From a virus (lineage: Duplodnaviria > Caudoviricetes), in the IMG/VR virus record IMGVR_UViG_3300037419_001256, positions 1 through 40,804 of that record: a stretch of 40,804 bases of DNA; one strand, 5' to 3'. A program made the translations under genes and the position numbers. The notes below the pieces were generated by a model, which was given only the letters and a program-made list of their open reading frames with translations, did no database searches and was not told the origin of the DNA. This document shows positions 3,414 through 22,133 of the stretch, piece after piece. Each line of letters starts with the position of its first letter. Position 1 is the first letter of the stretch.

Positions 3414-4463
3414 TTAGTACTCATACCCAATCAGGGTGACCGTGTTGCCCGCCGTGGCCGTTCCGATCTGGCTGATTCCGAATTGCATATTGCCGGAGAG
3501 CTCGAATCCATCCGGAAACGTCACGCAGTTGCCGTTCGTCACATTGGCCGTCGCGAGATACGTTCCAGCAGCGCACGTCGCGATCAGCGGGCTATTGGCC
3601 GCTACCGCTCCCGTCGCCGTGATCCTCAGGTTGCAGACAACGCCCTGGCCGGCGGCGCCCGCATTTTTCGTGCTCACACTAAGCGATTGCAGCCTGAGCC
3701 TCTTCCCAGACGTAACCGCAAACGTCGTTCCGGTTGCTCCCGCAGTTCCGTCCGTGATCGGGGTCAGCGTTACAAGCGCCTCGCTCGTTGCCGCTGTGAA
3801 GCTTGCCGAAAAAACCCTCAGGACGCGCCCCGCATCCTTCAGATCCTGGGTCGAGAGGCCCGTTGAACCCTGCGTTCCCTTGGTGAGAGTCGGCGGGGTG
3901 ATCGTCACCGTGCCCGAAACAGGCACCGCGCTCGCCCTCAATTGGGCATCCGTTAGAGGCCCGGACACGGCGAATGTACCGCCGCCGGCGTTGGCCGTGA
4001 CAGTGCCGGAAACGGCCACGGTCGAAGCGATCGACACAGGCTGCGTCGCTTGCCAGAACGTGCCCGACACCGGAACAGCGGCAGCCCTCAGCTGCGCGTC
4101 CGTCAAAGGACCGCTTACATTTACAGTGGCGGCGATGCTGACCGGTTGTGTGGCCTGCCAGAAAGTGCCGCTGACCGGCACCGTTCCCGAAATCCCTACG
4201 GTTCCCGATATTGGCTGGGTGGCTTGCCAAAAGGTTCCCGACACCGCGACCGGCGTTGCGCGCAGCTCGGCGTCCGTTAGTCCGCCCGACGAAGATCCGC
4301 CTCCGCTGACAATCGAGACGGGCAGCGGGTTTGCAGAACTTACGTCCGTCGCTGTCCCGTCCTGTCCGAACGTGACCTTGATCCGGTCGTAATAGACGGC
4401 GCCGATCTCATCGGCAGCCATGCAAATCGCGGCAGAGCGGCCGCGCATATAGTTGTCTGGCAC
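3414..4463 (-). CDS. Beta-strand repeat fibre/spike-like protein (349 aa)
   Basis: Three copies of VSGTFWQATQP(I/V)S and three of LTDA(E/Q)LRA..V.VSG; N-terminal DVSSANPLPV. Confidence 0.6.
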   Translation of the reverse strand: MPDNYMRGRSAAICMAADEIGAVYYDRIKVTFGQDGTATDVSSANPLPVSIVSGGGSSSGGLTDAELRATPVAVSGTFWQATQPISGTVGISGTVPVSGTFWQATQPVSIAATVNVSGPLTDAQLRAAAVPVSGTFWQATQPVSIASTVAVSGTVTANAGGGTFAVSGPLTDAQLRASAVPVSGTVTITPPTLTKGTQGSTGLSTQDLKDAGRVLRVFSASFTAATSEALVTLTPITDGTAGATGTTFAVTSGKRLRLQSLSVSTKNAGAAGQGVVCNLRITATGAVAANSPLIATCAAGTYLATANVTNGNCVTFPDGFELSGNMQFGISQIGTATAGNTVTLIGYEY

Positions 4464-9002: not shown

Positions 9003-9614
9003 CTATGGCGCTCCGGTGAGGAGGATGGGGCGCGCGTTAGTGCCCGCCCCGACGCGGCTAGGGGCTACCGCGCTGTTGAGCTTTTCCATCCATTTGCTGC
9101 GGGCTAGCTCGGCCCACGGCGCATCAATTGGCTTGCCGTGAATATGCGGTTCGGCGAGATAGGCGTCCGCCTCGGCTTCGCGACCGGATTGGACTATGCG
9201 GTACGCGTCTCCGGCGAAGCTCCATCCCGAGCGTCGGCTGAGGTTTGCCACGCGAAGCGAGTAGCTTTGCTGTTTGCGGCTTTCCGGCGTGCCTCTGTAT
9301 GTCTTGCCCTTTTCGAGCGGAGAGCCGTTCGCTACCGGCAGCGTCGCAATGTCAAACGTTCCGGCGCGAATGGCCTCGATGGTGTCTTGCAAGTCTTGCG
9401 ACCAGTAGAACCATTCATAAGCCTTGTGCGTCTCCAGGAAGCGCTGGTGAAAGCGGCGCTCGATATCGTGGCCGCCGTCGATCTCCGCGATGATCTCCAG
9501 CGGAAGCGGCGACCATGCCTGAAGTCCGTTCTTCCTGCCGGTCGGGGAAAAGGAGCATCCGATCTTGATCGGTCCCCGCATCCCAACCGCTTTGATGAAA
9601 TAGACGCGCTTCAT
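9003..9614 (-). CDS. GIY-YIG (T5orf172/MUG113-type) domain protein
   Basis: VYFI...IKIG.S..P..R...LQ...E...H..F......EWF. Confidence 0.8.
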   Translation of the reverse strand: MKRVYFIKAVGMRGPIKIGCSFSPTGRKNGLQAWSPLPLEIIAEIDGGHDIERRFHQRFLETHKAYEWFYWSQDLQDTIEAIRAGTFDIATLPVANGSPLEKGKTYRGTPESRKQQSYSLRVANLSRRSGWSFAGDAYRIVQSGREAEADAYLAEPHIHGKPIDAPWAELARSKWMEKLNSAVAPSRVGAGTNARPILLTGAP

Positions 9615-10717: not shown

Positions 10718-11005
10718 GTGGAACAACAGGGTCAGGGTCAGGGCGCGTCCGCTAGCGCGGAAACCGGCTCTCATGCTTCGCACGAAGCCCCTCTAGGTCT
10801 TCGCCCTTCGGGTTTCGATCCGGCGCGCATTCGCCAACTGGCGGAAAAGATTGACCGAGTAGGAATAAGCACGGCGGATGCTTTTGTGCGCGGTGCCTAC
10901 ACGGGGAGGCCTGAGCGTCACACCCTAGAAGTCACGTTCTACTGTCTCTCGGTGGCAGATGCTCTCCGCGCCCGCGCGGTTGAGCTTGCGGAGCAGTCGG
11001 CATGA
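10718..11005 (+). CDS. Hypothetical protein; N-terminus encoded by repeat L1
   Basis: First ORF after PL; GGAGAGGA RBS; ATGA-coupled downstream. Confidence 0.6.
   Translation: MEQQGQGQGASASAETGSHASHEAPLGLRPSGFDPARIRQLAEKIDRVGISTADAFVRGAYTGRPERHTLEVTFYCLSVADALRARAVELAEQSA
10741..10821 (-). repeat. Four-way-junction element L1
   Basis: Minus strand: CCGGATC GAA A [CCC GAA GGG] [CGAAGAC..GGCTTCG] [TGC GAA GCA] T GA GAGCCGG, hairpin, CGCCC. Confidence 0.85.
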
Positions 11006-11181
11006 CCAAGCCCCATTCCCCCCAAATCAACGACGGAATGGACGTTCTCGTGATGCTCCAGCGCATCCGGCGCGCCTTTCCTCGGCTCACCTCCGAAATG
11101 GACTTGCTCGTTGATCTGGTCAGCGATGGCGACGTGTCCCTCGCGCTCGACGCGGCAATCGCAAAGGAGCGCGCAAGATGA
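11002..11181 (+). CDS. Hypothetical protein (59 aa)
   Basis: Manual translation MTKPHSPQINDGMDVLVMLQRIRRAFP...; ATGA-coupled on both sides. Confidence 0.55.
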   Translation: MTKPHSPQINDGMDVLVMLQRIRRAFPRLTSEMDLLVDLVSDGDVSLALDAAIAKERAR

Positions 11182-11351
11182 CATCTCTCGCTGAATCACG
11201 CTTTCTGCTGATTGGAGCAGTGTTGGGATTGGCCGTGGTCGGGGCGAATGCCGCGCTCCGCACGGCACCGCGCCACTCGTGCTCCGCACCGAACCACTCT
11301 TCGGTGTTTCGGCCATTCGGCGAGTGTCGCATTTCGCGGGAGCGGCCATGA
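11178..11351 (+). CDS. Small hydrophobic protein (57 aa), C-terminal half encoded by repeat L2
   Basis: AAGGAG RBS; ATGA-coupled on both sides. Confidence 0.45.
   Translation: MTSLAESRFLLIGAVLGLAVVGANAALRTAPRHSCSAPNHSSVFRPFGECRISRERP
11242..11329 (-). repeat. Four-way-junction element L2
   Basis: Plus strand GGGCG..CCGCGCCACTC GTGCTCCGCAC CGAACC..GTTTCGG CCATTCGG CGAGTGTCG. Confidence 0.85.
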
Positions 11352-11830
11352 CCGCCGTCGCCAAACCCAGATGCGCCATGTGCGGGGGCACCCCGTTCAG
11401 CGTTTCGATGGACCCCAATGCGCCGCTGTTCTGCTCCCTGGAATGCGAGGGCAACTGGCGGAGACAGCAACGCGAAGGATCGTATCTCGCGGCGCTGAAC
11501 CTGACGCCCAAAGCTACTTACGAAGCGTGGGGCGACTTGGACCTTGGCGCTCCAGAGGAGGCGTGGGCCTGCGCGGTTGACCGTTTCCGCGAGGAGGCGC
11601 GCATCAACTCGCAATGCGCCGAGCAACAACGCAAGCTGGCTAAGGACGCGGCGGAGCAAGCCGAACGCCACGCCCGCCGCGCCGAGGACTTCGCCAAGCT
11701 CGCTGACGCAATAGAGCGAGCACCAATCACATTCGCCGCGTCAGCCGACACTCACCCGAAGGGCGGAGACGTGCAACAGGCTCCGCTCGTGAGTGGCGCG
11801 GTCCCCGAAGGGGAGACGCCCAATGCGTAA
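11348..11830 (+). CDS. Zn-finger plus coiled-coil hypothetical protein; C-terminus encoded by repeat R1
   Basis: CAMC...FCSLEC; GGAG RBS. Confidence 0.6.
   Translation: MTAVAKPRCAMCGGTPFSVSMDPNAPLFCSLECEGNWRRQQREGSYLAALNLTPKATYEAWGDLDLGAPEEAWACAVDRFREEARINSQCAEQQRKLAKDAAEQAERHARRAEDFAKLADAIERAPITFAASADTHPKGGDVQQAPLVSGAVPEGETPNA
11743..11821 (+). repeat. Four-way-junction element R1
   Basis: AGCCGACACTCA CCCGAAGGG CGGAGAC..GGCTCCG CTCG TGAGTGGCGCGG TCCCCGAAGGGGA GACGCCC. Confidence 0.85.
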
Positions 11831-12035
11831 GCTTTATTTCACAGTCCTCGGCCCAATCCCCAACGGCTTCTGCATCATCGCAGCATATCCAACATATGAT
11901 GAAGCCTACCGCCTTACCCTAACAAACCAATCATATTTCATGGGTGAGCCATTAACCCAGGAGGAAGCGGAACAGCGGGGGCTGATTACGCTCGCCGAGG
12001 TTGAGCACCTTGGGCCCGGAAAGATCGCAGCATGA
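11823..12035 (+). CDS. Hypothetical protein (70 aa)
   Basis: ATG right after R1; ATGA-coupled to the MTase gene. Confidence 0.55.
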   Translation: MRKLYFTVLGPIPNGFCIIAAYPTYDEAYRLTLTNQSYFMGEPLTQEEAEQRGLITLAEVEHLGPGKIAA

Positions 12036-12760
12036 CGTTGCGCGTCCTCTCCCTGTTCGCCGGAATAGGCGGCTTTGACCTTGGCCTGGAGCGGACTGGC
12101 GGCTTTCAGACGATCGCCTTCAGCGAGATCGACAAGCACTCCTGCAAGGTTCTCAAGCGCCACTGGCCGCATGTTCCGAACCTCGGCGACGTAACCACAA
12201 CGGAGTTCCCGAATGCCGAAGTCATCTGTGCCGGCTTTCCATGTCAGGACATCAGCCTTGCTGGCAAAGGCGCCGGACTTGCCGGAGCCCGTTCAGGACT
12301 CTGGCGGGAGGTGGTGCGAGCCATTCGCGTGGTACGACCACTCTACGCGCTGCTGGAGAACGTGGCAGCGCTGCTTGGACGGGGAATGGGCCGAGTTCTC
12401 GGAGACCTGGCCGAGGAGCGGTATGACGCGGAGTGGGATTGCATACCAGCGTTCGCAGTTGGCGCGCTGCACTATCGGGACCGGACGTGGATCATCGGTT
12501 ATCCCGACACCAACGGCGTGCGACCACAAAGGCTCAGGCCGTCTCCGACTGGAACGTGGTGCAAACAACAATTTGAGGGACTGGTTCAAGATCAAGTTCG
12601 GCTTTCTCTACCCGCCGGTCGCCGCAGTGGAATATCTGATGGGGTATCCGACAGGATGGGCCAGCTCAAAGCCTACGGAAACGCCGTAGTCCCGCAGATA
12701 CCCGAACTCATCGGCCGCGCAATCCTCGCATCGCTTGCCGAGCAGAAAGATGCAGCATGA
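12032..12760 (+). CDS. DNA cytosine-C5 methyltransferase, alpha subunit (motifs I-VIII and X)
   Basis: SLFAGIGG (I), GFPCQDIS (IV), ENV (VI), YRDR (VIII), AYGNAV (X); motif IX absent. Confidence 0.92.
   Translation: MTLRVLSLFAGIGGFDLGLERTGGFQTIAFSEIDKHSCKVLKRHWPHVPNLGDVTTTEFPNAEVICAGFPCQDISLAGKGAGLAGARSGLWREVVRAIRVVRPLYALLENVAALLGRGMGRVLGDLAEERYDAEWDCIPAFAVGALHYRDRTWIIGYPDTNGVRPQRLRPSPTGTWCKQQFEGLVQDQVRLSLPAGRRSGISDGVSDRMGQLKAYGNAVVPQIPELIGRAILASLAEQKDAA
12213..12689 (+). CDS. Nested +1-frame C5 MTase beta subunit (motif IX)
   Basis: Own GGAG RBS 7 nt upstream; C-terminal PVAAVEYLMGYPTGW resembles motif IX; PTP.A.D.KG segment. Confidence 0.72.
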   Translation: MPKSSVPAFHVRTSALLAKAPDLPEPVQDSGGRWCEPFAWYDHSTRCWRTWQRCLDGEWAEFSETWPRSGMTRSGIAYQRSQLARCTIGTGRGSSVIPTPTACDHKGSGRLRLERGANNNLRDWFKIKFGFLYPPVAAVEYLMGYPTGWASSKPTETP

Positions 12761-12981
12761 AGCCGATCGATAATCTTCGCGCACGGGCATTTCTAGCGCT
12801 CAATGATGACTTGCTCGAAGGAAGAGGATTCGGGCGGACAGAGGCTTTGCGGCATCTTGTGGGCGAATCCCTTCGGGACCGTGGCTCTCGTGCTTCGCAT
12901 GGAGCCCTTCGGTCTCCACCATCCGGCTTCGATCCACTTTCGCAAGTTTCCTCGCAGGAGAAGGAGGCTGGGGCCCAATAA
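12757..12981 (+). CDS. Hypothetical protein containing repeat L3
   Basis: ATGA-coupled to the MTase gene. Confidence 0.45.
   Translation: MKPIDNLRARAFLALNDDLLEGRGFGRTEALRHLVGESLRDRGSRASHGALRSPPSGFDPLSQVSSQEKEAGAQ
12861..12935 (-). repeat. Four-way-junction element L3
   Basis: Plus strand GGGCGAA TCCCTTCGGGA CCGTGGCTCTCG TGCTTCGCA TGGAGCC..GTCTCCA CCATCCGG CTTCGATCC. Confidence 0.85.
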
Positions 12982-12999
12982 GCTCCAGCCAGCAATCGC

Positions 13000-13770
13000 A
13001 TGGCAACCAAAGTCCAGCTGCAGACAGTCGGGCAAATCATTGACGAGAAGGACCGCGAAAACGCGATCATCAACGTCATTGCCCGCGCCGCATCAGACCC
13101 AAACACGGACGTTGACAAGCTGGAGCGCCTTCTGGCGATGCAGGAGCGGGTTCTTGAGCGCGAGGCAGAGCGGACCTTCAACGTCGCAATGCGCGGGGCT
13201 CAGGACGCCATCAAGCCAGTCCTGAAGAACAGGAAGAACAAGGAGACGCATTCGAGCTATGCGGACCTGGAGCAGATCAGCAAGCTCATCGATCCAGTCA
13301 TCCACGAGCAAGGCTTCTCGCTCTCATTCGGGACCGCCGACTGCCCGTATCCGAACCACTACCGCGTGACGTGCGCCGTGTCCCACACCGGAGGTTTTAC
13401 CCGCAACTACCAGGCGGACGTGCCGATCGACAACAAGGGGCCAAAGGGCGCGCAGAACAAGACCGACACCCACGGCTTCGGCTCAGCCCTCAGCTACGGG
13501 CGCCGCTATCTCAAGCTCCTGATCTTCGACATTGCCACGACCGACGATGACGGCCGCGCAGCCGGAAACGGAGGGCCAATCAACGAGGAACAGGTGAAGG
13601 TGCTGAACGGGCTGGCGGACGCGGTGAACGCCGACAAGGCCAAGCTCTGCGAATACCTGAAGATCGCCTCGCTGCCCGAGCTCCCGGCGCTCAAATACAA
13701 CGACACGATCCATCTGCTCGAACAGAAGAACCCGAAGGCTGCCCGCGACTATCTGACGGGAGGCCGCTGA
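13000..13770 (+). CDS. erf: ERF-family single-strand annealing recombinase
   Basis: DVDKLERLL, YADLE, GFSLSF, GSALSYGRRY...DDDG motifs. Confidence 0.9.
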   Translation: MATKVQLQTVGQIIDEKDRENAIINVIARAASDPNTDVDKLERLLAMQERVLEREAERTFNVAMRGAQDAIKPVLKNRKNKETHSSYADLEQISKLIDPVIHEQGFSLSFGTADCPYPNHYRVTCAVSHTGGFTRNYQADVPIDNKGPKGAQNKTDTHGFGSALSYGRRYLKLLIFDIATTDDDGRAAGNGGPINEEQVKVLNGLADAVNADKAKLCEYLKIASLPELPALKYNDTIHLLEQKNPKAARDYLTGGR

Positions 13771-14423
13771 TGGAGATTTTCAACTGCGAGCAGGGTTCCG
13801 AGGAATGGTTTCGCGCTCGGCTCGGCATCCCCACTGCTTCCGAGTTTCACACCGTCATGGCGAAGGGCCGCGACGGCGGGGACAGCAAGACACGCCGCGC
13901 CTACATGCTCAAGCTGGCTGGCGAAGTGCTGACCGGGGAACTGATGGACAGCTTCTCGAACGGCCACACGGAGCGCGGCAAGGAATACGAGCCGGACGCC
14001 CGGAACCTCTACGCCTTCATGAAGGACTGCGAGCCGCAACTGGTCGGCTTCATCCGCAACGGCCCAAAGGGTTGCAGTCCGGACTCGCTGATCGATGAAA
14101 ACGGCATGGTCGAGATCAAGACCAAGCTGCCACATATCCAGGTCGATTGCCTGCTCAGCAACAGGCTTCCGCCCGAGCACAGGGCGCAATGCCAGGGCGC
14201 CCTATGGGTCGCGGAGCGCGAGTGGATCGACTTCGTATCCTACTGGCCGAGGCTCCCGCTGTTCGTGATCCGCGAATACCGGGACGAGGAATACATCGCC
14301 AAGCTCGCTGCGGCGGTGGACGCCTTCAACGACGAACTGGCCGAGGCCGTGGAGCGCATCCGCTCCATGACTGACGGATCACATCTTCGCGAAGAACTCA
14401 GGCAATCACTGGAGGCAGCATAA
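13770..14423 (+). CDS. Lambda exonuclease/YqaJ-family 5'-3' exonuclease
   Basis: QGSEEWFRARLGIPTAS, GCSPD, VEIK, AQCQGALWV. Confidence 0.92.
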   Translation: MEIFNCEQGSEEWFRARLGIPTASEFHTVMAKGRDGGDSKTRRAYMLKLAGEVLTGELMDSFSNGHTERGKEYEPDARNLYAFMKDCEPQLVGFIRNGPKGCSPDSLIDENGMVEIKTKLPHIQVDCLLSNRLPPEHRAQCQGALWVAEREWIDFVSYWPRLPLFVIREYRDEEYIAKLAAAVDAFNDELAEAVERIRSMTDGSHLREELRQSLEAA

Positions 14424-14822
14424 ATGGCATCGCTCAACAAGGTAACGCTGATCGGGAACCTCGGGGCAGACCCGGAAGCCCGCTCACTCAACAACGGAGG
14501 GGATGTCGTAAACCTTCGCCTCGCCACGACCGACACATGGAAGGACCGCGACGGTAACAAGCAGGAGCGGACTGAGTGGCATCAGGTCGTGATCTTCAAC
14601 GAGAACCTGTGCAAGGTGGCCAAGTCCTACCTCCGCAAGGGCTCCAAATGCTACATCGAAGGCGCGCTGCAAACGCGCAAGTGGCAGGACCAGGGCGGTA
14701 ACGACCGCTACTCAACCGAGGTCGTTCTTCAGAAGTATCACGGCGAGCTGATCCTGCTCGACGCCAAGGGCGGCAATTCAGCGCCAGCGCGCGAGCGCGA
14801 GACGGGAGATGTTCCCTTCTGA
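14424..14822 (+). CDS. ssb: Single-stranded DNA-binding protein
   Basis: NKVTLIGNLGADPE...TEWH...YIEGALQTRKW, C-terminal DVPF; alphaproteobacterial type. Confidence 0.97.
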   Translation: MASLNKVTLIGNLGADPEARSLNNGGDVVNLRLATTDTWKDRDGNKQERTEWHQVVIFNENLCKVAKSYLRKGSKCYIEGALQTRKWQDQGGNDRYSTEVVLQKYHGELILLDAKGGNSAPARERETGDVPF

Positions 14823-15157
14823 TGCTCCCCGGCCGCATCAATTCCCGCGACTTGCGCGGCAAGCCGAAGATCCGTTCGGACGCGCATCGGAAATGGATTC
14901 GCTCTCATTTCTGCTGCGTTCCAGGCTGCCAGCAAATGCCGATTGACTGCGCGCATGTCTCAATCCCCGGCAATCGGGGTGTCGGGATCAAGGCGTCGGA
15001 CGCCTACACCATCTCGCTCTGCCATCCGCATCACATGGAGCAGCACCAGGGCTCGGAAACATTCGAGCGCAAATACAAGATCAGCATGGTCGCACTGGCG
15101 CGGGAGTTCTTCGAACGATCCCCGCACCGGCACAAGCTGGACAACCCCTATGCCTGA
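14822..15157 (+). CDS. DUF968/HNH-like Zn nuclease
   Basis: H..WIRS..CCVPGC....CAH...K..D...I.LC..HH.EQH. Confidence 0.75.
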   Translation: MLPGRINSRDLRGKPKIRSDAHRKWIRSHFCCVPGCQQMPIDCAHVSIPGNRGVGIKASDAYTISLCHPHHMEQHQGSETFERKYKISMVALAREFFERSPHRHKLDNPYA

Positions 15158-15605
15158 CAAGGAGCCTATCCTTTACCGTCCCGTGTTCGGCGGGATGCGC
15201 CCGACAACGCCCGCGGCGCAGGAGCAGTTCGCGGGGCTGGACCCTAAGCGGTCATACCGCGTGGACATCAAGGGGATCAGGGGAAACACTCGTCGCCTGG
15301 CGCTCTACTGGATATGCCTCAAGCTCGGCTGCGAGCAGCTTTCCGATGCGGTGGACGGCAAGATGTCGCCGCGCATCCTTCATCGCTACCTCAAGCGCCG
15401 CTGCGGGCTTTCCTCGCCGATCATCAGCAAGAAAACAGGCGAGATCATCGATTGGGATGATGAGTCCATAGCGTTCGAGAACATGCCCGAGAACGAGCGG
15501 GCGGCATACATCGATGACGCGCTTGCCAAGCTGTCCGAATGGATCGGCTGCGATGTCACCACCCTGCGCTCTGAGGCGCAAGCTCAATTCGGAGAGGCAG
15601 CATGA
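15150..15605 (+). CDS. DUF1367/NinB-like protein
   Basis: R.N.....YW and SIAF..M...E...Y pattern; start ATG 15150. Confidence 0.6.
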   Translation: MPDKEPILYRPVFGGMRPTTPAAQEQFAGLDPKRSYRVDIKGIRGNTRRLALYWICLKLGCEQLSDAVDGKMSPRILHRYLKRRCGLSSPIISKKTGEIIDWDDESIAFENMPENERAAYIDDALAKLSEWIGCDVTTLRSEAQAQFGEAA

Positions 15606-15844
15606 GCATGAGTTTCTTCACCCGCGCCAGCAACGGCGATCTCGTCGTGGCGAGCTACACTGGCCGCAAAAGCCACTGCTGGATTTGGTCTGTGTCGCTC
15701 AGTCGAGAACTGTTTGGCGCGCAGATCACACCCAAAGAGAGGCGGCGCGGGCAATGGCATCACTATTTCCCGCTGTTCGGGCGAACACTCATCATCAGCC
15801 GCCAGGATTACCACCGTGATCCTCGGCACCGGAGGGCAGCATGA
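15602..15844 (+). CDS. Hypothetical protein (80 aa)
   Basis: GAGG RBS; ATGA-coupled on both sides. Confidence 0.6.
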   Translation: MSMSFFTRASNGDLVVASYTGRKSHCWIWSVSLSRELFGAQITPKERRRGQWHHYFPLFGRTLIISRQDYHRDPRHRRAA

Positions 15845-16050
15845 AAACCGTAACCACCGTCACGGAACGGAAAGCAACGATAAGACCCATGTTCGTATCT
15901 AGAGTAGTTAAACCTCCTTTAGCTGTAGGACATCGCCAATGGCTTTCGGGCGATTGGCTTCGCCACCGCGCCACTCGTGAACCGAGCCTAAAGTCTCGGC
16001 CCTTCGGGCGAGTGTCGGCTATCGCGGGGGGCGCGCGTGGCATACGCTGA
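15841..16050 (+). CDS. Hypothetical protein containing repeat L4
   Basis: GGAGG RBS; ATGA-coupled. Confidence 0.45.
   Translation: MKTVTTVTERKATIRPMFVSRVVKPPLAVGHRQWLSGDWLRHRATREPSLKSRPFGRVSAIAGGARGIR
15948..16020 (-). repeat. Four-way-junction element L4
   Basis: Plus strand GGGCGAT TGGCTTCGCCA CCGCGCCACTCGTGAA CCGAGCC..GTCTCGG CCCTTCGGG CGAGTGTCGGCT. Confidence 0.88.
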
Positions 16051-16444
16051 ACGAACTGTCGTCACCGTCGAGGAAAGCATCCTCGAAATCCGCAAGACGG
16101 TCGCTCGCTACAAGGGTGAGCAGTTCGTCTTTGGCGTGGCCGAGGACAAGGTTGTTGTCGGCTTTACGAAGGAGGGGCGGCAAGTCCGCTTCACCGTCCG
16201 CCAAGACCCCGACCAGCCGCAGAAGAACAAACAGCTCTGTCGCGCCCTTCTGCTCGTCCTGAAGGCCAAGCTGGAGGCGGTTGAAAGCGGAGTGGCCGTG
16301 TTTGAGGACGAGTTCCTAGCGAACATCGTTCTTCCGACCGGAAAACTCGTCAGTCAGGAGGTCCGGCCCCGTCTGGCGACGGCATATGAAACCGGCGAAG
16401 CGCCCGCTCTCTTGCCCGACTACACCGAAAGGACCGGAGCATGA
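16037..16444 (+). CDS. Conserved-looking phage hypothetical protein (135 aa)
   Basis: YAERT.V....S..EI and RALLLVLKAKLEAVESG...FEDEFLA.IVLP motifs. Confidence 0.7.
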   Translation: MAYAERTVVTVEESILEIRKTVARYKGEQFVFGVAEDKVVVGFTKEGRQVRFTVRQDPDQPQKNKQLCRALLLVLKAKLEAVESGVAVFEDEFLANIVLPTGKLVSQEVRPRLATAYETGEAPALLPDYTERTGA

Positions 16445-16689
16445 GTCCAGACGGCGCCATTGTCGATTACATTTACGAATGGGCGTGGCGCACCGCCGTT
16501 CCCGGCGAAACGTCAACCGAGACGTTCAAGCGGGCAATCGAGCGCGGCTTGAGAGAGGGCAGGAAGTCAGCGTCAGCCGACACTCGCCCGGAGGGCGAAG
16601 ACGCAACGAAGATTGCGGCTGAGTTCACGAGTGGCGCGGTCCCGAACGAAGATTCGGGAGACGCCCGAACACCGGAGGGGGATCGATGA
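16441..16689 (+). CDS. Hypothetical protein; C-terminus encoded by repeat R2
   Basis: ATGA-coupled. Confidence 0.55.
   Translation: MSPDGAIVDYIYEWAWRTAVPGETSTETFKRAIERGLREGRKSASADTRPEGEDATKIAAEFTSGAVPNEDSGDARTPEGDR
16575..16666 (+). repeat. Four-way-junction element R2
   Basis: AGCCGACACTCG CCCGGAGGG CGAAGAC..GGCTGA GTTCACGAGTGGCGCGG, hairpin, GACGCCC; inverted partner of L4. Confidence 0.88.
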
Positions 16690-16856
16690 AACCATCATTG
16701 CTGGAGCTTGCCGAGCGCTATCAGCAGCACGCAATTCGAGTGGCAAAACTCGCGATTAGCCCGATTGGCGTGAGCAGGGCCGATGCTGCGACTGCCGCCG
16801 ATTGTTTCGCGATTGCCGCCGCTCTCCGCGCATCCAATACGAAGGAAGAGAAATGA
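16686..16856 (+). CDS. Hypothetical protein (56 aa)
   Basis: GGAGG RBS; MKPSLLELAERYQQHAI...ALRASNTKEEK; ATGA-coupled. Confidence 0.55.
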   Translation: MKPSLLELAERYQQHAIRVAKLAISPIGVSRADAATAADCFAIAAALRASNTKEEK

Positions 16857-17176
16857 GCGGACGCTTCAACGGAAGCGCTCTCGGCATTCGTCTGAAGATG
16901 CTTCGCGAATTGCGCGGCATGAGCTTGCAACAGGTCGCCGACGCTGCCGATCTAACCAAGTCTCACGTTTGGGAGCTTGAGCAGGGCCGCGCGATAAATC
17001 CGACTGTAAACGCCGTTTGGGGCTTGGCGGAAGCTCTCGCCGTCGCGCCGGGAACGCTGCTCGGTCTCGATGATCGTGTGCCGCAACTCGACCCATTTGC
17101 GCTCAAATTGGCGGGCATGATCGACCGCGAGATCAAGAGGCGCGCATCCAATACGAACAAGGAGCAGGAACAGTGA
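16853..17176 (+). CDS. XRE-family HTH regulator
   Basis: LKMLRELRGMSLQQVADAADLTKSHVWELEQGRAINPT. Confidence 0.88.
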   Translation: MSGRFNGSALGIRLKMLRELRGMSLQQVADAADLTKSHVWELEQGRAINPTVNAVWGLAEALAVAPGTLLGLDDRVPQLDPFALKLAGMIDREIKRRASNTNKEQEQ

Positions 17177-17376
17177 GCAACCCCGGATACTGCCCTGACT
17201 GCAAGGAAAGCGGATGGGCATGTCGCTGTGGCCGCGAATCATTACCGAAAGCCCAAGGGGGCGATGCTGATTGGCTGCGCGTGTTCGCCGATGCCTACAA
17301 GGACGACATTAGCGAGATTAGCCGAAATAAGCTGCTCGAAATTGCTGACCGTCTCGCGAACAAGGAGCAGGAATGA
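17173..17376 (+). CDS. Small Cys-rich hypothetical protein
   Basis: CPDC...CRC; coupled through the junction repeats. Confidence 0.55.
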   Translation: MSNPGYCPDCKESGWACRCGRESLPKAQGGDADWLRVFADAYKDDISEISRNKLLEIADRLANKEQE

Positions 17377-17900
17377 ACGCGCTCCCGCCCATTCTCGACG
17401 CCTGCTGCGGCGAGCGCACCTTCTGGTATGACAGGAAGGACGCACGAGCTCTATTCATCGACAAGCGCCGCGAAACGCACCCTATCGACATCGGGACGCC
17501 GGGAACACGCGGGCGGTCCCCGATTGTCGTCGATCCTGATATGCTCGCCGACTTCACCGATCTGCCGTTCCCCGATGCCAGCTTCCATCTGGTCGTTTTT
17601 GATCCGCCTCACGTGCAGCGCAAGGAAGCGCTGGGTGTAATCACGCGCCGATACGGGCATTTAACTGGCGACTGGAAAGACATGCTCTCTCGCGGGTTCG
17701 CGGAATGCTTCCGCGTGCTCAGGCCTAACGGGACGCTCGTGTTCAAATGGGCCGAATCCCAATTTCGCGTAAAGGATATTCTCGCGCTCACGCCCGAGAG
17801 GCCGCTGTTCGGCCACAAGACGAGCAAGACGACGCATTGGGTCGTGTTCATGAAAGACGCCTACGCCCGCGCCAATACGAACAAGGAGCAAGAACAGTGA
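17373..17900 (+). CDS. SAM-dependent methyltransferase (amino-MTase type, DPPH)
   Basis: ILDACCG.R.FW (motif I), VVFDPPH (motif IV), RVLRPNG. Confidence 0.85.
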   Translation: MNALPPILDACCGERTFWYDRKDARALFIDKRRETHPIDIGTPGTRGRSPIVVDPDMLADFTDLPFPDASFHLVVFDPPHVQRKEALGVITRRYGHLTGDWKDMLSRGFAECFRVLRPNGTLVFKWAESQFRVKDILALTPERPLFGHKTSKTTHWVVFMKDAYARANTNKEQEQ

Positions 17901-18160
17901 GGCTCAACATTTACAGCCAAGAGTTAACCGATGAGGTCGAGCTTGGCCTTAAGCCGAGCAACACGGGCATTGGATACTCGTTCGTTCGCATGTTCCTGAA
18001 GAGTGCGCCCGAGCTTCATCATCCGCCGCAGGACGATGACAGGAGCGCGATAACCTTCTGGCTACCGAAGTCCATGTGGCGGCGCGAAGAACTGGCGACG
18101 GCCTTTGAACAAATGGCTGAGCTGGTCCGCAGAGCGCCCAATGAAACAGGATTGGACTGA
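17897..18160 (+). CDS. Hypothetical protein (87 aa)
   Basis: GTG inside a junction repeat; MRLNIYSQELT...DDDRSAITFW. Confidence 0.65.
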   Translation: MRLNIYSQELTDEVELGLKPSNTGIGYSFVRMFLKSAPELHHPPQDDDRSAITFWLPKSMWRREELATAFEQMAELVRRAPNETGLD

Positions 18161-18474
18161 TGACCCAACCCCCTCCGACACTCAAAGCGATGCCGCGCGG
18201 CAAAGCAACGCTCCGTGAAGTCCACGACTTTCTGAACGGGCTTTCCGATAGCCAGTTCGCGGTGCTCGCCGGTGGTGAATACTGCGAAGATTTGCTCGGC
18301 ATGATCGTCGGTTCAATGGGCCGAGCGCTGGATGCATCCCCTAACCCCGAAGCCAGCGAGATTATGCGGGAGGCGCTGGAGCGGATTGAGCGGCTGCGCT
18401 TGAGCGGGATGGAAACAGAAGCGCAACAAATTGCTCGCGAAGCTCTGTCCTCAATATGTAAGGGGGAGCAATAG
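18160..18474 (+). CDS. Hypothetical protein (104 aa)
   Basis: TGATG-coupled ORF. Confidence 0.55.
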   Translation: MTQPPPTLKAMPRGKATLREVHDFLNGLSDSQFAVLAGGEYCEDLLGMIVGSMGRALDASPNPEASEIMREALERIERLRLSGMETEAQQIAREALSSICKGEQ

Positions 18475-18479
18475 TGTTT

Positions 18480-18552
18480 GGGCAGCTTCTCCCGCTCTCG
18501 CGCTACGCGCCGAGCCTGTTCCACGTCTCGGCCCTACGGGCTTCGATCGGGG
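18480..18552 (-). repeat. Four-way-junction element L5
   Basis: Minus strand CCCGATC GAA G [CCC GTA GGG] [CCGAGAC..GGCTCGG] [CGC GTA GCG] C GA GAGCGGG ..GCCC. Confidence 0.85.
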
Positions 18553-18556
18553 CTGC

Positions 18557-18871
18557 GTGAACCAGTCCCGCCCCTTCTCGCCTGAGACCTTGGCCGCTCG
18601 GTGGGCTTGCTCATCCGAGACGGTTCGGCAAATGTGCCGTCGTGGGGATCTCGGCTACTTCCGGCTCGGGAAGCTGATTCGCATCCCCGCCAATGAGGTC
18701 GAACGGGTCGAATGTCAGAATACCGTCTCGTCAGGCACCGAGGAAAATACAGCCTCGCCTACGGAACTCCCCGCAAGCGAATTGCGACTGGCACGGCTGA
18801 TCGGGGACGGGCCGAAGCTATCGCTGGTGAACTCTGGCGCCGGATCAACCGGCCAGCAGCGGAACGGGTAG
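18557..18871 (+). CDS. xis: Excisionase (HTH) with a C-terminal tail overlapping int
   Basis: PFSPETLAARWACSSETVRQMCRRGDLGYFRLGKLIRIP, an excisionase-type HTH directly upstream of int. Confidence 0.75.
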   Translation: MNQSRPFSPETLAARWACSSETVRQMCRRGDLGYFRLGKLIRIPANEVERVECQNTVSSGTEENTASPTELPASELRLARLIGDGPKLSLVNSGAGSTGQQRNG

Positions 18872-19674
18872 CCGACCTATGGGCACCCTACTCTACGGAC
18901 AGGATCGCCAACGGCGGCTCAAAGTCGCGGATCGACTCGCTCTGGAAAACGCTGGAGCCGCACTTCGGCTACAAGCTCGGCAAGGCCATAACGAAGGCCG
19001 ACTGCCGCGACTATGCGGCGATGAGGAAGCGGCAAGGGAAATCACCCTCCACCATAAAGACGGAGCTCGAAGCGTTGCGGGCGTGTCTGCGCTGGCACTA
19101 CGGGAAGGAAGCGCCGATCATCGTCGCGCCGTCACCGTCGAAGCCGCGGGACCGCTATCTCACGAAAGAGGAAGCGAAGCGCCTGCTGGACGCGATCGAG
19201 ACGCCGCACGCCAAGCTATTCGTGGAAATAGCTTTGGGAACCGGAGCCAGGATGGGCGCGATCCTCGACTTGACCTGGGATCGGGTGGATCTGAAGCACA
19301 ACCTCATCGACTTCAAACCCGCCGGACGGGCGACCACGAACAAGCGCCGCGTGGAGGTCGGGATAACGCCCCGACTACGGGAGAGGCTGGAGGAAGCGCG
19401 CAAAGGCGCTCTAACCGATCATGTGATCGAGTATGGGGGAAAGCCGGTCAAGAGCGTGAAGAAGGCCGTTGCCGCCGCCGCTCGGAGGGCTGGAGTGCCG
19501 TGCTCGCCTCATGTGTTCAGGCATACGGCAGCGGTATGGATGGCCCAGGCCGACGTTCCGCTGGACAGGATCGCGCAGGTTCTCGGGCATACGTCGCCGA
19601 GGGTCACTTACGCCACCTATGCGCGCTATTCGCCCCGGTTCATGGCCGATGCGATGGCCGCTTTGGACTGGTGA
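18712..19674 (+). CDS. int: Tyrosine integrase
   Basis: TGAR, K, HVFRH, LGH and Y (TYARY) catalytic residues; next to a tRNA-derived attP. Confidence 0.95.
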   Translation: MSEYRLVRHRGKYSLAYGTPRKRIATGTADRGRAEAIAGELWRRINRPAAERVADLWAPYSTDRIANGGSKSRIDSLWKTLEPHFGYKLGKAITKADCRDYAAMRKRQGKSPSTIKTELEALRACLRWHYGKEAPIIVAPSPSKPRDRYLTKEEAKRLLDAIETPHAKLFVEIALGTGARMGAILDLTWDRVDLKHNLIDFKPAGRATTNKRRVEVGITPRLRERLEEARKGALTDHVIEYGGKPVKSVKKAVAAAARRAGVPCSPHVFRHTAAVWMAQADVPLDRIAQVLGHTSPRVTYATYARYSPRFMADAMAALDW

Positions 19675-19734
19675 GTGGTTCATCGGTTCCGGCCAACCCT
19701 CTCGGAGTCTGTGGAGAAAGTGGCGGAAAACTGC

Positions 19735-19778
19735 GGTGGGCGCTACAGGATTTGAACCTGTGGCCTCCTCGGTGTAAA
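19735..19778 (-). other. attP core: 3' half of tRNA-Val(UAC)
   Basis: Minus strand TTTACAC CGAGG AGGCC ACAGG TTCAAAT CCTGT AGCGCCC ACC, i.e. anticodon loop, T-arm and acceptor 3' strand; 5' half absent; TCTGTGGA(G/C)AA repeats flank it at 19708 and 19846. Confidence 0.85.
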
Positions 19779-19873
19779 AGCGAGCGCCCCACGCAAATCT
19801 GCGGTTTTTTACCCACGATTGCGAGGGATTACGCCAACGTCTCTCTCTGTGGACAAGTCGCGGGTGGTTCCAA

Positions 19874-20473
19874 ATGAACCAGCCGACACTCTCGGAAATT
19901 GTCGTGCCTGAAGGCGGCTTCGGTGCCATCTATGCCGATCCGCCTTGGCGCTTCGCGTGCTGGAGCGGCAAGGGAACGGCGCGTTCGGCAGACAACCATT
20001 ACGACACGATGGCGCTTGAGGACATCGCTGCGCTGCCGGTGGCAGACATTGCCGCCGAGGATTGCGTTCTGCTGATGTGGGCGTGCTGGCCGCTTCTCCC
20101 CGAAGCTCTGAAGCTGATCGACGCTTGGGGCTTCACCTACAAGACGTGCGGCTTCGACTGGATGAAGGCGAACAACAGTCAGCCCGACATGTTCAGGGAG
20201 GACGCGGACGTTCAGGTGGGCATGGGGTATTGGACTCGCGCCAATAGCGAGCCGTGCCTTCTCGCCACGCGAGGCAAGCCTAAGCGCATCAACGCAGATG
20301 TCCGCATGGGAATTATCGAGCCGCGCCGAGAGCACAGCCGCAAGCCAGATTGCGTCCACCGCCGCAGCGAGCGCCTAGTCGGTGGGCCGTACCTGGAGAT
20401 GTTCGCCCGCACCCCCCGCGAAGGCTGGACCGTGTGGGGCAACCAAACAGACAAGTTCGCGAGGGCTGCATGA
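19874..20473 (+). CDS. MT-A70-family adenine methyltransferase
   Basis: IYADPPW, LMW, WGF.Y, GMGYWTR...E.CLLATRG, HSRKP, LEMFAR, WGNQ. Confidence 0.93.
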   Translation: MNQPTLSEIVVPEGGFGAIYADPPWRFACWSGKGTARSADNHYDTMALEDIAALPVADIAAEDCVLLMWACWPLLPEALKLIDAWGFTYKTCGFDWMKANNSQPDMFREDADVQVGMGYWTRANSEPCLLATRGKPKRINADVRMGIIEPRREHSRKPDCVHRRSERLVGGPYLEMFARTPREGWTVWGNQTDKFARAA

Positions 20474-20730
20474 CAAGAGAACTAGAGGACGCCGTGGTGC
20501 GCGTTTCAACGTGGCTCTCGCGGTTGCCTAGGGCCGCTTATCGCGGGCCGGGACTGCGCGCCACGCCGATCGCAGAGATCGAAACGCTGGTCGCGGCCTA
20601 CTCGACGGTACTCAAGCCTACTCTTCCCGCGCAAGGGATCGACACGCGAAGCGCCATCGACGCGCAGCGGCGTGGCCCGAAGGGTGAGAGCCCGGTCGCC
20701 AACGGCGATGCGCCCAAAGGAGCAAGTTAA
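20470..20730 (+). CDS. Hypothetical protein; C-terminus encoded by repeat R3
   Basis: ATGA-coupled to the MT-A70 gene. Confidence 0.5.
   Translation: MTRELEDAVVRVSTWLSRLPRAAYRGPGLRATPIAEIETLVAAYSTVLKPTLPAQGIDTRSAIDAQRRGPKGESPVANGDAPKGAS
20626..20715 (+). repeat. Four-way-junction element R3
   Basis: GGGATC GAC A [CGC GAA GCG] [CCATCGAC..GGCGTGG] [CCC GAA GGG] T GA GAGCCC GG, hairpin, TGCGCCC. Confidence 0.82.
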
Positions 20731-20792
20731 TGCCCAACTCAGGTGATAAACCAGTATCGTTTGGCATATCTGAACAAGGGGAGATGTAGATT

Positions 20793-21374
20793 ATGGGCGC
20801 ATCGGCTACGCCGACCGGGCCTGCGCCCTCCGGGCTGAGTCAATCTTCGTTGTCTCAGGCAGAGCCGCTAGTCCCTTGCGCGGGCCTAGGTCTTCCGACC
20901 GACTTGGCACACCATTACTTCTGGAGCGGATATTGGGACGGCCCGATCGATGGATGGATTTACGTTCGGGGGCAATTCTACCACTTTGACAGTCTGGGAG
21001 ACGCGCTGGCGCTCAATCATCGCATCTACGGCGTCTATTACGTTCCCAAGTCTGTTCGCGCTGCTCACATGCTACGGCACCGCAGCTTCGCGCTCCAAGT
21101 CGGCCGCCACACAGGCCGCAAGCCGGGCGAGCCGCGGCGCTTCTTCAGCGAGGCAGCGAAGCCAAATTGGAAGGTGTGGTATCTCGCCAACTCAAAACCG
21201 CTGCCACCAATCGAGCGCAAGATGATGGTCGGGATTACGCGACTGCGCGACGGAGTTGTTCACTGGCTCGACAAGCCGGAGCACTTCTCGCGGGAGTGGC
21301 AATATCTCGACAGCGACGAGGATGAGGAAGACACGCCCGCGACGGCGAAGCCGGGACGCCCAAACACCGTTTAG
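20793..21374 (+). CDS. Hypothetical protein (193 aa) with repeat-derived N- and C-termini
   Basis: GGGAGA RBS; core YWDGPIDGW.YVRGQFYHF. Confidence 0.6.
   Translation: MGASATPTGPAPSGLSQSSLSQAEPLVPCAGLGLPTDLAHHYFWSGYWDGPIDGWIYVRGQFYHFDSLGDALALNHRIYGVYYVPKSVRAAHMLRHRSFALQVGRHTGRKPGEPRRFFSEAAKPNWKVWYLANSKPLPPIERKMMVGITRLRDGVVHWLDKPEHFSREWQYLDSDEDEEDTPATAKPGRPNTV
20795..20884 (-). repeat. Four-way-junction element L6
   Basis: Plus strand GGGCGCA TCGGCTACGCCGA CCGGGCCTGC GCCCTCCGGGC TGAGTC..GTCTCA GGCAGAGCC GCTAGTCCCTTGCGCGGG. Confidence 0.8.
21342..21361 (+). repeat. Truncated element (terminal hairpin plus CGCCC only)
   Basis: CGGC GAA GCCG GGACGCCC followed by AAACACC, similar to the GAACACC after R2. 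Confidence 0.55.
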
Positions 21375-21386
21375 AGGACTATAAAG

Positions 21387-21614
21387 ATGAGCGAACTACG
21401 GGAGAAGGTGGCGGACGTTTTCGCCGGCGTGCTGTCCGAGATAGAGACTGGCGGCGATTGGGCTCTGATGGACCGCGCTTATGAGCTTGCTGACGAAATC
21501 CTCGCGATTCCCGAAATCCGCGAAGGATTATATCTCTACTCACGAAAGAAGGTGAAAGCGGGTAAGCCATCCAGGGAACCCGCTCTTGGGCATTCGATAG
21601 GGACGAGACGATGA
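21387..21614 (+). CDS. Hypothetical protein (75 aa)
   Basis: GAGGA RBS; ATGA-coupled. Confidence 0.6.
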   Translation: MSELREKVADVFAGVLSEIETGGDWALMDRAYELADEILAIPEIREGLYLYSRKKVKAGKPSREPALGHSIGTRR

Positions 21615-21946
21615 GCGACAGAATCATTGATTTAGAGGCTGGCGTTAAGCTCTACCGGACGCAGGCTCGCGCCAAACAGATTGTCGATATGTGCGTGGCG
21701 CACTCTCTGAATGAGCAGGGCGAACCTGACGAACACAACTTCCGTCGCTTCGCCCATGATGTCGCTGCGCTCGCGACGACGACGCTGCTACGCTACATCT
21801 ACGACGATGACGCTGAGATAAACAGGCTCGCGGTAGAGCGTGACCACTACAAGCGCCTCGCCGAAGAGGGTCTCCGCTGTCAGCCGATTGGCCCACTGAT
21901 TATCGCGTCAGTCGATACCGACCCGAAGGGCCGAGACACGAAGTAG
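21611..21946 (+). CDS. Hypothetical protein (111 aa); ends inside repeat R4
   Basis: Last plus-strand early ORF. Confidence 0.6.
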   Translation: MSDRIIDLEAGVKLYRTQARAKQIVDMCVAHSLNEQGEPDEHNFRRFAHDVAALATTTLLRYIYDDDAEINRLAVERDHYKRLAEEGLRCQPIGPLIIASVDTDPKGRDTK

Positions 21947-21993
21947 GCTCGGTGCGCAAGCATCGGTAGCGCGGTGCCGTCAGGCAGACGCCC
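21910..21993 (+). repeat. Four-way-junction element R4
   Basis: GTCGATACCGA [CCCGAAGGG] [CCGAGAC..GGCTCGG] [TGC GCAA GCA] TCGGTAGCGCGG TGCCGTCAGGCA GACGCCC. Confidence 0.88.
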
Positions 21994-22133
21994 TAACCCT
22001 TCTTCCTCTTCTTAACAGATAGAATAAGCATTACCGCAAGGGCGTGGCAGTCCTCTATGGATAATGTCACTTCCAATCGACCCGTTTCCGGTGTGAATAC
22101 CAGCTTTCCGAGCTCGATCGGCTTGGTGCTCAT
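21993..22133 (-). CDS. Small hypothetical protein (46 aa), last late gene
   Basis: ATGA-coupled to the Rz-like gene. Confidence 0.45.
   Translation of the reverse strand: MSTKPIELGKLVFTPETGRLEVTLSIEDCHALAVMLILSVKKRKKG

Follow-up and report, generated by a model that had tools for sequence, protein, structure and literature searches.

A widespread, apparently undescribed family of elements predicted to fold as multi-junction single-stranded DNA, with ten copies in the early operon of a temperate podophage

We find that ten copies of an element of ~85 nt in the temperate podophage record IMGVR_UViG_3300037419_001256 of IMG/VR (40,804 nt, analyzed over its whole length and termed the window below) belong to a real, widespread, and apparently undescribed family, predicted to fold as multi-junction single-stranded DNA (ssDNA). 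One fold of five to six helices is predicted to be conserved from the leading region of plasmid F to Microviridae and temperate phages. Judged from sequence, the element would work most like a single-strand initiation (ssi) site and secondarily like a cassette joint. The function that we tentatively prefer, short of being persuaded of it, is a putative start signal for complementary-strand synthesis, akin to ssi sites and single-strand origins (sso), that doubles as such a joint.

The fold was analyzed on a family alignment (A2) of 90 non-redundant copies drawn at random from 158, on which the covariance model R1 was built. Read 5' to 3' on the strand ending in CGCCC, the element consists of the first strand of a closing helix P0 (GCGNN), usually an A, helices P1, P2, P3, and P4, the 3' strand of P1, P5, NNCGC, and an unpaired CC; the 5'-GCGNN of P0 pairs with the NNCGC directly before this terminal CC. 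P1 opens with SS-G and an A.G mismatch, followed by five Watson–Crick pairs (70/293) or, more commonly, by two pairs, a tandem GA/GA, and a bulged A (191/293). P2 is a hairpin; P3 has 5 bp, an A.G mismatch, and a variable tip; P4 is a hairpin or a 1-bp stub such as TTCA; and the P5 hairpin is missing from short forms. A first-pass annotation of the window had proposed a shared fold with a four-way junction, and its arms and junction stand, as do the pairings it gave for P1 and P3 with their two A.G mismatches, the reduced fourth arm in the copies at 11738, 15948, and 16570, and the missing terminal hairpin at 18480. It had overlooked P0, which places the true 5' boundary ~5 to 12 nt beyond the one drawn there, and the predicted fold is therefore a three-way junction (P0, P1, and P5) plus a four-way junction (P1–P4).

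Pairing is kept while the sequences differ, as had been claimed: across the 90 sequences, both partners vary in 21 of 25 pairs, and 95.8% of cells are paired, a level reached by 0 of 500 shuffles, and slid partners give 30 to 43%. The NN positions of P0 show both-sided change in 48 and 51 of the 90 sequences, and the covariation of P0 NN, outer P3, and P5 falls at positions that no search pattern specified. The A.G mismatches are kept in 88/90 and 86/90 sequences; these counts are partly circular, as both mismatch positions, along with parts of P1 and P3, had been set by the seed patterns. No viral flank (0/201) has G at position −1, and the stem is followed by CC in 94 to 99%, such that the fork and CC tail appear to be held open. 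P0 and P1 are present in the minimum-free-energy (MFE) structures of all ten window copies; loose-boundary folding did not recover the consensus, and exact boundaries did better. Copies are ~66% alike. Rfam returned nothing over the window elements at E ≤ 1 and nothing at gathering score for copies from F and microviruses, in keeping with the earlier failure to recognize a named family.

Run on the window with filters off, R1 gives exactly ten matches (48.9–72.5 bits, spanning 10738–21996), all inside the plus-strand early operon at 10.7 to 22.0 kb and in the places and orientations first assigned (Table 1). Its 90 training elements come nearly all from other genomes and include the window copy at 21905 and a copy from the relative L119 identical to that at 12861. 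The best score beyond the ten copies is 18 bits, and the replication and late regions therefore hold no copies, as the first-pass annotation had stated. A truncated copy reported at 21342 is less secure: its terminal hairpin and GACGCCC are present, R1 gives the piece no score at E ≤ 1, and a remnant is plausible but unproven. Independent soil and rhizosphere contigs reproduce the copies (16000–16658 with 0 differences, 11330–11763 with 6), which are therefore not an assembly artefact; contigs from 5 of 8 runs diverge at copy 5 (15948). Short open reading frames (ORFs) at 10718–11005, 11178–11351, 12757–12981, and 15841–16050 are open across minus-strand copies and look as if they keep the operon translated there, and at least one plus-strand frame is open through every copy except those at 20795 and 21905, where an ORF starts or ends.

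The loops of the element are of the DNA type. The 1,480 loop slots in 370 copies hold 636 GNA, 93 GNNA, 52 GNAB, 32 ANC, and 1 UNCG loops; the GNAB and ANC types are motifs of DNA. The CGCCC strand has 591 GNA triloops versus 42 on the opposite strand, and 282 of the 591 are unable to form cUNCGg on the complement. The DNA z-score is lower on the CGCCC strand in nine of the ten window copies, and d(GNA) hairpin loops are extra stable (PMC3201870). Covariation, DNA-type loops, and DNA z-scores thus uphold the initial preference for an ssDNA fold of the CGCCC strand over RNA.

Relatives were collected by pattern scans (21 and 125 viral stretches) and from genome stretches, at least 124 among the matches listed and ~390 estimated, mostly Alphaproteobacteria. 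The first loose pattern returned mostly chance matches (~16 true element rows of ~120); the descriptor scan, which missed 3 of the 10 window copies and gave false matches up to a score of 14, was used only at ≥15. Temperate phages account for 265 matches in 57 loci, selected for a pattern match, with up to 12 copies, and orientation in the 29 phage loci with at least four copies is 105 plus and 103 minus. On chromosomes, the element occurs in 13 of 120 sampled alphaproteobacterial genomes (1–5 copies) and 1 of 120 gammaproteobacterial genomes, which are lower bounds, with only 36 to 150 candidates scored per genome; five of five carriers hold 1 to 14 chromosomal copies.

The element occurs in thousands of enterobacterial plasmids: in PLSDB, a phage copy matches 3,596 records and the F copy 4,458, with 3,419 conjugative plasmids among the latter. 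Plasmid F carries two copies, at 58088–58177 (79 bits) and 63476–63565 (71 bits), both within the repeats that precede ssb and the gene ahead of DUF932; they share the strand of the deposited ssiD and lie ~95 nt beyond its 3' end. The transferred strand (T-strand) serves as template for transcription of the leading genes (bioRxiv 2023.02.15.528439), and the element strand in F would therefore be the T-strand. A related junction module with a GAAAC/GGTTC arm, found at 12803–12886 (−) of L472 and in Frpo* 4 and 5, sits at the corresponding position, 3' of the ssDNA promoter, in IncI1 plasmids and others; Frpo* 5 and 6 have a common promoter and differing junction modules (PMC11541004 supplement 7). 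In islands resembling integrative and conjugative elements (ICEs), the element terminates the long structured leader of ardC–parB operons. In 20/20 and 15/16 cases, ardC is found 5' of it and in the opposite orientation, which puts the element on the ardC template strand in 35/36; many of these cases are related Bradyrhizobium. Variable defence or repair genes follow on its 3' side. One Bradyrhizobium genome has 12 of its 14 copies on one strand, clustered. A long repeated hairpin-rich leader ~300 to 450 nt upstream of ardC in Bradyrhizobium ICE-like islands (L293, L309, and L278) is a candidate alphaproteobacterial ssDNA promoter. Several viral-classed contigs (L153, L203, L478, L482, L488, L521, L527, and L552) have DUF932/ArdC genes 5' of a single opposite-strand element, the geometry of a plasmid leading region.

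In Microviridae, the element is in the virion sense, as judged from gene orientation, in 15/15 contigs from ~12 lineages, with one copy each. Microviruses selected by capsid match in 6 of 76 cases at E ≤ 0.01 (two being seeds) and a looser pattern finds 11 of 68; among small IMG/VR contigs lacking a microvirus capsid, those annotated are mostly tailed-phage fragments. The copy occupies the VP1–VP2 gap, the Rep–scaffold gap, or a site just 5' of an origin-like hairpin. It lies between VP1 and VP2 in the gokushovirus KT264808, and the phiX174 primosome hairpin lies in the interval corresponding to VP1–VP2 (PMC9865509). In small-genome microviruses, it ends ~15 to 50 nt ahead of a hairpin whose loop reads CTTG(A/T)T, a putative origin that resembles the phiX174 viral-strand origin CAACTTGATA. 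The slot holds different folds or nothing in other microviruses. A second structured module (GGAGCC...GGC...TGGTGAG) lies 5' of the element slot at 3700–3770 of L215 and in 17 other microvirus loci (18/68) and is followed by a slot occupied by the element, by variants, or by unrelated folds. Across replicons, the folding strand is thus fixed where one strand is predictably single and free in double-stranded DNA (dsDNA) phages.

A host loading site would be in keeping with this strand rule, with where the element lies in microviruses and beside ssiD, and with the open fork. As would be predicted for an ssi/sso, the element lies on the strand presumed to be single in microviruses, F, and ardC leaders, and computation gives it a stable secondary structure; cassette exchange alone would not easily explain why minimal ssDNA genomes carry a single copy. 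According to the model that we tentatively favor, the CGCCC strand would fold when exposed in a virion strand, a conjugative T-strand, or DNA resected by the phage exonuclease, forming the P0 GCG/CGC stem with its non-G 5' tail and unpaired 3' CC and the three-way and four-way junctions, with mini-hairpins and G.A pairs that would withstand melting by SSB. A host enzyme, for which RNA polymerase or PriA/DnaG are candidates, would then load at the element, and synthesis would proceed toward its 5' side, in plasmids and ICEs into the ssDNA promoter and the leading genes, or into a cargo gene in phages, where an inverted pair could serve either strand. ColE1, with primosome sites on the lagging (ssiA) and leading (ssiB) strands (PMC3167613), offers a possible precedent for paired sites. 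Finally, ERF/exonuclease recombination and end joining would set breakpoints at the stem because the fold would resist trimming and copies are ~66% alike; the exact edges in dsDNA phages may thus be a by-product of a trimming-resistant fold and ERF-type exchange, with the ERF-like protein, exonuclease, and SSB as the likely agents of exchange between copies.

A number of observations weigh against a priming function or the fold on which it would depend. The complete four-way junction is the MFE structure of only ~3 of the 10 window copies, and the strand test of G.T versus A.C is a weak 19:10. The look-alike found at the corresponding place in ColIb-P9 scores only 13 bits, 70 of the 76 capsid-selected microviruses have no match at E ≤ 0.01, and several microviruses have nothing between VP3 and the origin-like hairpin. 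The element is beyond the end of the deposited ssiD and differs in sequence from ssiE; R1 finds no match to phiX174, and its best ColE1 match is 13.7 bits (E = 1). Rifampicin abolishes early conversion in F at psiA and ygeB (bioRxiv 10.64898/2026.01.09.698686), which lie downstream of the two F copies, and an efficient RNA polymerase–independent (PriA/DnaG-type) priming site is therefore not evident in Escherichia coli; only an RNA polymerase–dependent, weak, or host-specific role survives these data. Priming alone also leaves unexplained the 5 to 12 copies per dsDNA phage and the loss of stop codons in 53 of 61 cargo ORFs.

The lost stop codons and the inverted pairs are best explained by the foremost alternative, a structure-encoded recombination or strand-transfer site resembling attC or a HUH substrate, which we consider somewhat unlikely. 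A putative and probably host enzyme would cut at the invariant GCG/CGC stem and join the 5' end of the element to foreign gene ends, giving two-ended cassettes. Neighboring copies 231 to 1000 nt apart are arranged minus-then-plus in 57 of 89 cases versus 24.5 expected (0/2000 shuffles as high), with their 5' GCG ends facing inward on 0.1 to 1 kb of cargo, usually one ORF. Ten of 61 cargo ORFs have a Pfam match (methylases, HNH, RNA ligase, DUF1643, YAcAr, HTH, and R2K), and the 53 noted above enter the second element without a stop of their own, as scored by a longest-ORF rule with rough edges; in the four cargo families checked, element-free homologues mostly have their stop no more than ~12 codons from the join. 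Loci L204 and L159 have both elements in common, along with ~50 nt of outer flank, and differ in cargo. Viral pairs with at least 88% identity number 72; the two members have neither flank in common in 48, both flanks in 10, the 3' flank alone in 10, and the 5' flank alone in 4 (17, 8, 5, and 10, respectively, among 40 genome pairs); identity between relatives usually ends 0 to 3 nt from GCG, and L156 carries two identical copies. The invariant triplet and fixed mismatches recall attC, and an ssDNA substrate likewise predicts strand bias.

Element-limited identity, however, also arises by gene conversion between copies, and breaks are not confined to the 5' end: L119 departs from the window sequence at the 3' edge of copy 1 and within copy 3, and strain contigs break too at element-free gene borders such as 12001/12745 and 15596/15836. 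By eye, none of 68 ten-mer coincidences among 399 elements is a real empty site, and no zero-cargo pair or target duplication was found at the elements. Proteins shared by carriers include no dedicated enzyme; the commonest families in 33 multi-copy phage loci are ordinary integrases (28), annealing proteins (22), and HNH-like proteins (19). A MUG113/GIY-YIG-like family, present in the window beside cro at 9003–9614 (−), occurs in 14 of these 33 loci and was not seen in the microvirus or F gene lists. Y1_Tnp (PF01797) has 0 matches in the phage, in line with the first-pass statement that the window encodes no HUH transposase, and a positive control in 6 of 14 genomes; no Y1/RAYT/TnpA gene appears among annotated neighboring gene clusters. 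The attC-like idea raised initially gains support from the inverted pairs and from identity that ends at the stem, and it is not our leading reading because the element is single-copy in cargo-free microviruses of 4 to 6 kb and fixed in place in F and ICE leaders. Its most specific form, an undescribed multi-junction ssDNA site cut and rejoined at the GCG/CGC stem by a host enzyme as an integrase-free cassette system, is unlikely; if true, small foreign genes would be captured between inverted sites common to F-type plasmids, ICEs, microviruses, and temperate phages, at what would be, to our knowledge, the most complex conserved natural ssDNA fold.

Less probable again is a protective fold, a nuclease- or SSB-resistant block or decoy that would shield ssDNA, delay ssDNA-promoter conversion, or titrate a defence protein. 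The element lies 3' of Frpo and the ardC leader, where a converting polymerase would meet it first, anti-restriction and defence genes are among its neighbors, GNA hairpins are extra stable (PMC3201870), and a stem–loop roadblock, ssp2, has been shown in F (bioRxiv 10.64898/2026.01.09.698686). However, ssp2 is a different site that controls an ArdB-like gene, and in ssp2-deleted F, conversion is recorded at 94 s and 108 s on either side of the F copy (same preprint), which therefore imposes little stall; a roadblock would, moreover, be harmful to a microvirus.

We think it highly unlikely that the element is a selfish, non-autonomous ssDNA element, similar to repetitive extragenic palindromes (REPs) or miniature inverted-repeat transposable elements, moved in trans by a transposase to no benefit of the carrier. 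Near-identical copies with unrelated flanks and exact ends, and open frames that continue through copies, would suit such an element; a position fixed in thousands of plasmids and in ICE leaders, a low chromosomal copy number (1–14), and the failure to find empty sites, target duplications, or a RAYT/TnpA neighbor would not.

A structured RNA or mRNA regulatory element is barely credible. Covariation alone does not separate RNA from ssDNA (PMC5737381), and 309 of the 591 triloops can be read as cUNCGg on the other strand. Against this, the strand of the element varies, being template in F and ICEs, coding in microviruses, and both within the window operon; the conserved A.G and GA/GA turn into pyrimidine mismatches on the opposite strand; GNA, GNAB, and ANC loops predominate; and Rfam has no match.

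Last, the Holliday-junction mimic or substrate for the phage RusA, ERF, exonuclease, and SSB advanced in the first-pass annotation earns next to no credence, as P2 and P4 are only 1 to 4 bp, resolvases need longer arms, and microviruses and F carry the element without those phage genes, even though a four-way junction is present and the genes lie nearby.

The natural functional ssDNA structures described to date are mostly hairpins, a point made for attC (PMC5737381). If the priming function is correct, the element would be a candidate complementary-strand origin for microviruses in which none is known, as well as a neglected component of plasmid establishment; if recombination is correct, it would define a new cassette system.

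Table 1. Element copies and associated features of the window (CM, covariance model R1)
Feature	Coordinates	Strand	CM score (bits)	Description
Copy 1	10741–10828	−	66.8	tandem-GA type, full P0–P5; DNA MFE is the full three-way plus four-way fold
Copy 2	11242–11337	−	48.9	left partner of 11738 in inverted pair
Cargo, copies 2–3	11338–11737	+		one ORF, ATG at ~11348, stop at 11830, open through copy 3
Copy 3	11738–11821	+	72.5	P4 reduced
Copy 4	12861–12943	−	67.6	upstream of ERF/exonuclease/SSB genes; identical copy in relative L119
ERF-like annealing protein, lambda-type exonuclease, SSB	13000–14822	+		PHROGs 155, 149, 44
Copy 5	15948–16025	−	72.4	P4 reduced; left partner of 16570
Cargo, copies 5–6	16026–16569	+		ORF 16037–16444 (phrog_17260) and start of ORF 16441–16689
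Copy 6	16570–16666	+	49.2	P3 divergent
Copy 7	18480–18556	−	59.8	short form without terminal hairpin, immediately before xis–int
Tyrosine integrase, ordinary phage type, not IntI	18712–19674	+		phrog_1; TIGR02249 32.5 bits versus cut-off of 265
Copy 8	20629–20715	+	64.3	short-arm sequences swapped: P2 GCGAAGC, P4 CCCGAAGGG
Copy 9	20795–20881	−	49.2	divergent; left partner facing 21905
Possible remnant	21339–21361	+		terminal hairpin and GACGCCC only, seen in sequence
Copy 10	21905–21993	+	61.7	end of early operon; in training set

The window derives from soil/rhizosphere, has a 122-nt terminal repeat and a CheckV estimate of 58%, and encodes terminase, portal, capsid, cI/cro, RusA, three DNA methyltransferases, ERF, a lambda-type exonuclease, SSB, xis, and int; among annotated relatives, those closest in the early region include alphaproteobacterial phages. 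The cargo ORF between copies 2 and 3 has no match in Pfam or PHROG, and the second ORF between copies 5 and 6 is open across copy 6. Downstream of int, a segment like the 3' half of a tRNA at 19737–19789 (−) is a likely attP core (Rfam tRNA, E 0.52); no tRNA gene was found in the window. Strain contigs also recombine at two 30-nt gene-boundary repeats that are 97% identical (17148–17177 and 17872–17901) and at GCAGCATGA junctions, a short repeated gene-boundary sequence. An unannotated ORF of 349 amino acids contains three 72-nt internal repeats (3882–4277).

By the tests applied, the element is not a member of the n'-type primosome assembly sites (n'-pas), Frpo, attC, or REP. A literature search, with older subscription papers outside its scope, found no description of it; it goes unnamed in passages of PMC1950547, PMC5737381, PMC9849209 and its supplement, PMC9865509, PMC3167613, PMC12672017, PMC7690428, and bioRxiv 2023.02.15.528439, and in PMC11541004 supplement 7, which consists of sequences only. 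No Rfam family, including those curated from Weinberg 2017 (PMC5737381), matches it.

With REP/RAYT elements, IS200/IS605 ends, and REPINs, the element shares ssDNA hairpins, inverted pairs, and exact ends. REPs have a GTAG-type foot, and the element does not. Membership in REP/RAYT or IS200/IS605 was rejected on the lack of a Y1 HUH transposase, in the window and the neighbor clusters examined, and on low chromosomal copy number. In T4-type phages, promoter early stem–loop (PeSL) cassettes, like the boundary sequences of lambdoid phages, are repeated junctions where small early genes swap; unlike these, the element has no promoter, takes both orientations, and also occurs in non-phage replicons. 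Integron attC sites are likewise structure-conserved ssDNA with a short invariant terminal triplet, fixed unpaired bases, and single small ORFs bracketed by sites; the attC core is AAC/GTT, in contrast to GCG/CGC here. The element is multibranched rather than a hairpin, forms inverted pairs rather than a co-oriented array, and has no IntI or attI; attC/IntI membership was rejected on the TIGR02249 score and the alternating sites, and the pairs bracket single ORFs with identity ending at the stem, yet leave no empty site. The DUF1874 motif, a multistem structure in consecutive intergenic regions, has been proposed as a possible unusual attC or ssDNA without an integrase (PMC5737381); the element, in comparison, alternates in orientation and occurs in F and microviruses.

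Frpo/ssiD (ssp1a/b; F and ColIb-P9) lies on the same strand as the element and in the same repeat of the leading region, ahead of the leading genes on their template strand, and three 400-nt Frpo* candidates (2, 6, and 7) hold all or part of the element, unlabelled, at their distal ends (PMC11541004 supplement 7). The element differs in lying ~95 nt outside the deposited ssiD and in occurring without Frpo in phages; its consensus has no AT-rich −35/−10 boxes, and no sigma-70-like site overlaps the window copies. Membership in Frpo/ssiD was rejected on these grounds and because ssiE is unrelated; F ssp2 and ssiE themselves, both different sequences, were rejected as the element. Finally, ssi/sso sites (phiX174 n'-pas, ColE1 ssiA/ssiB, and the G4-type origin) differ in that the element is multi-junction, strongly conserved family-wide, and present in up to 12 copies in dsDNA phages, and n'-pas membership was rejected for want of a covariance-model match to phiX174 pas or ColE1 ssiA/B. 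Like the element, they are strand-specific folded ssDNA: the phiX F–G interval has GCGAAGC/CCGAAG-type mini-hairpins and ColE1 a GAGCGTAGCGAG mini-hairpin similar to those of the element, which in one gokushovirus occupies the VP1–VP2 interval, the one in which phiX174 pas lies.

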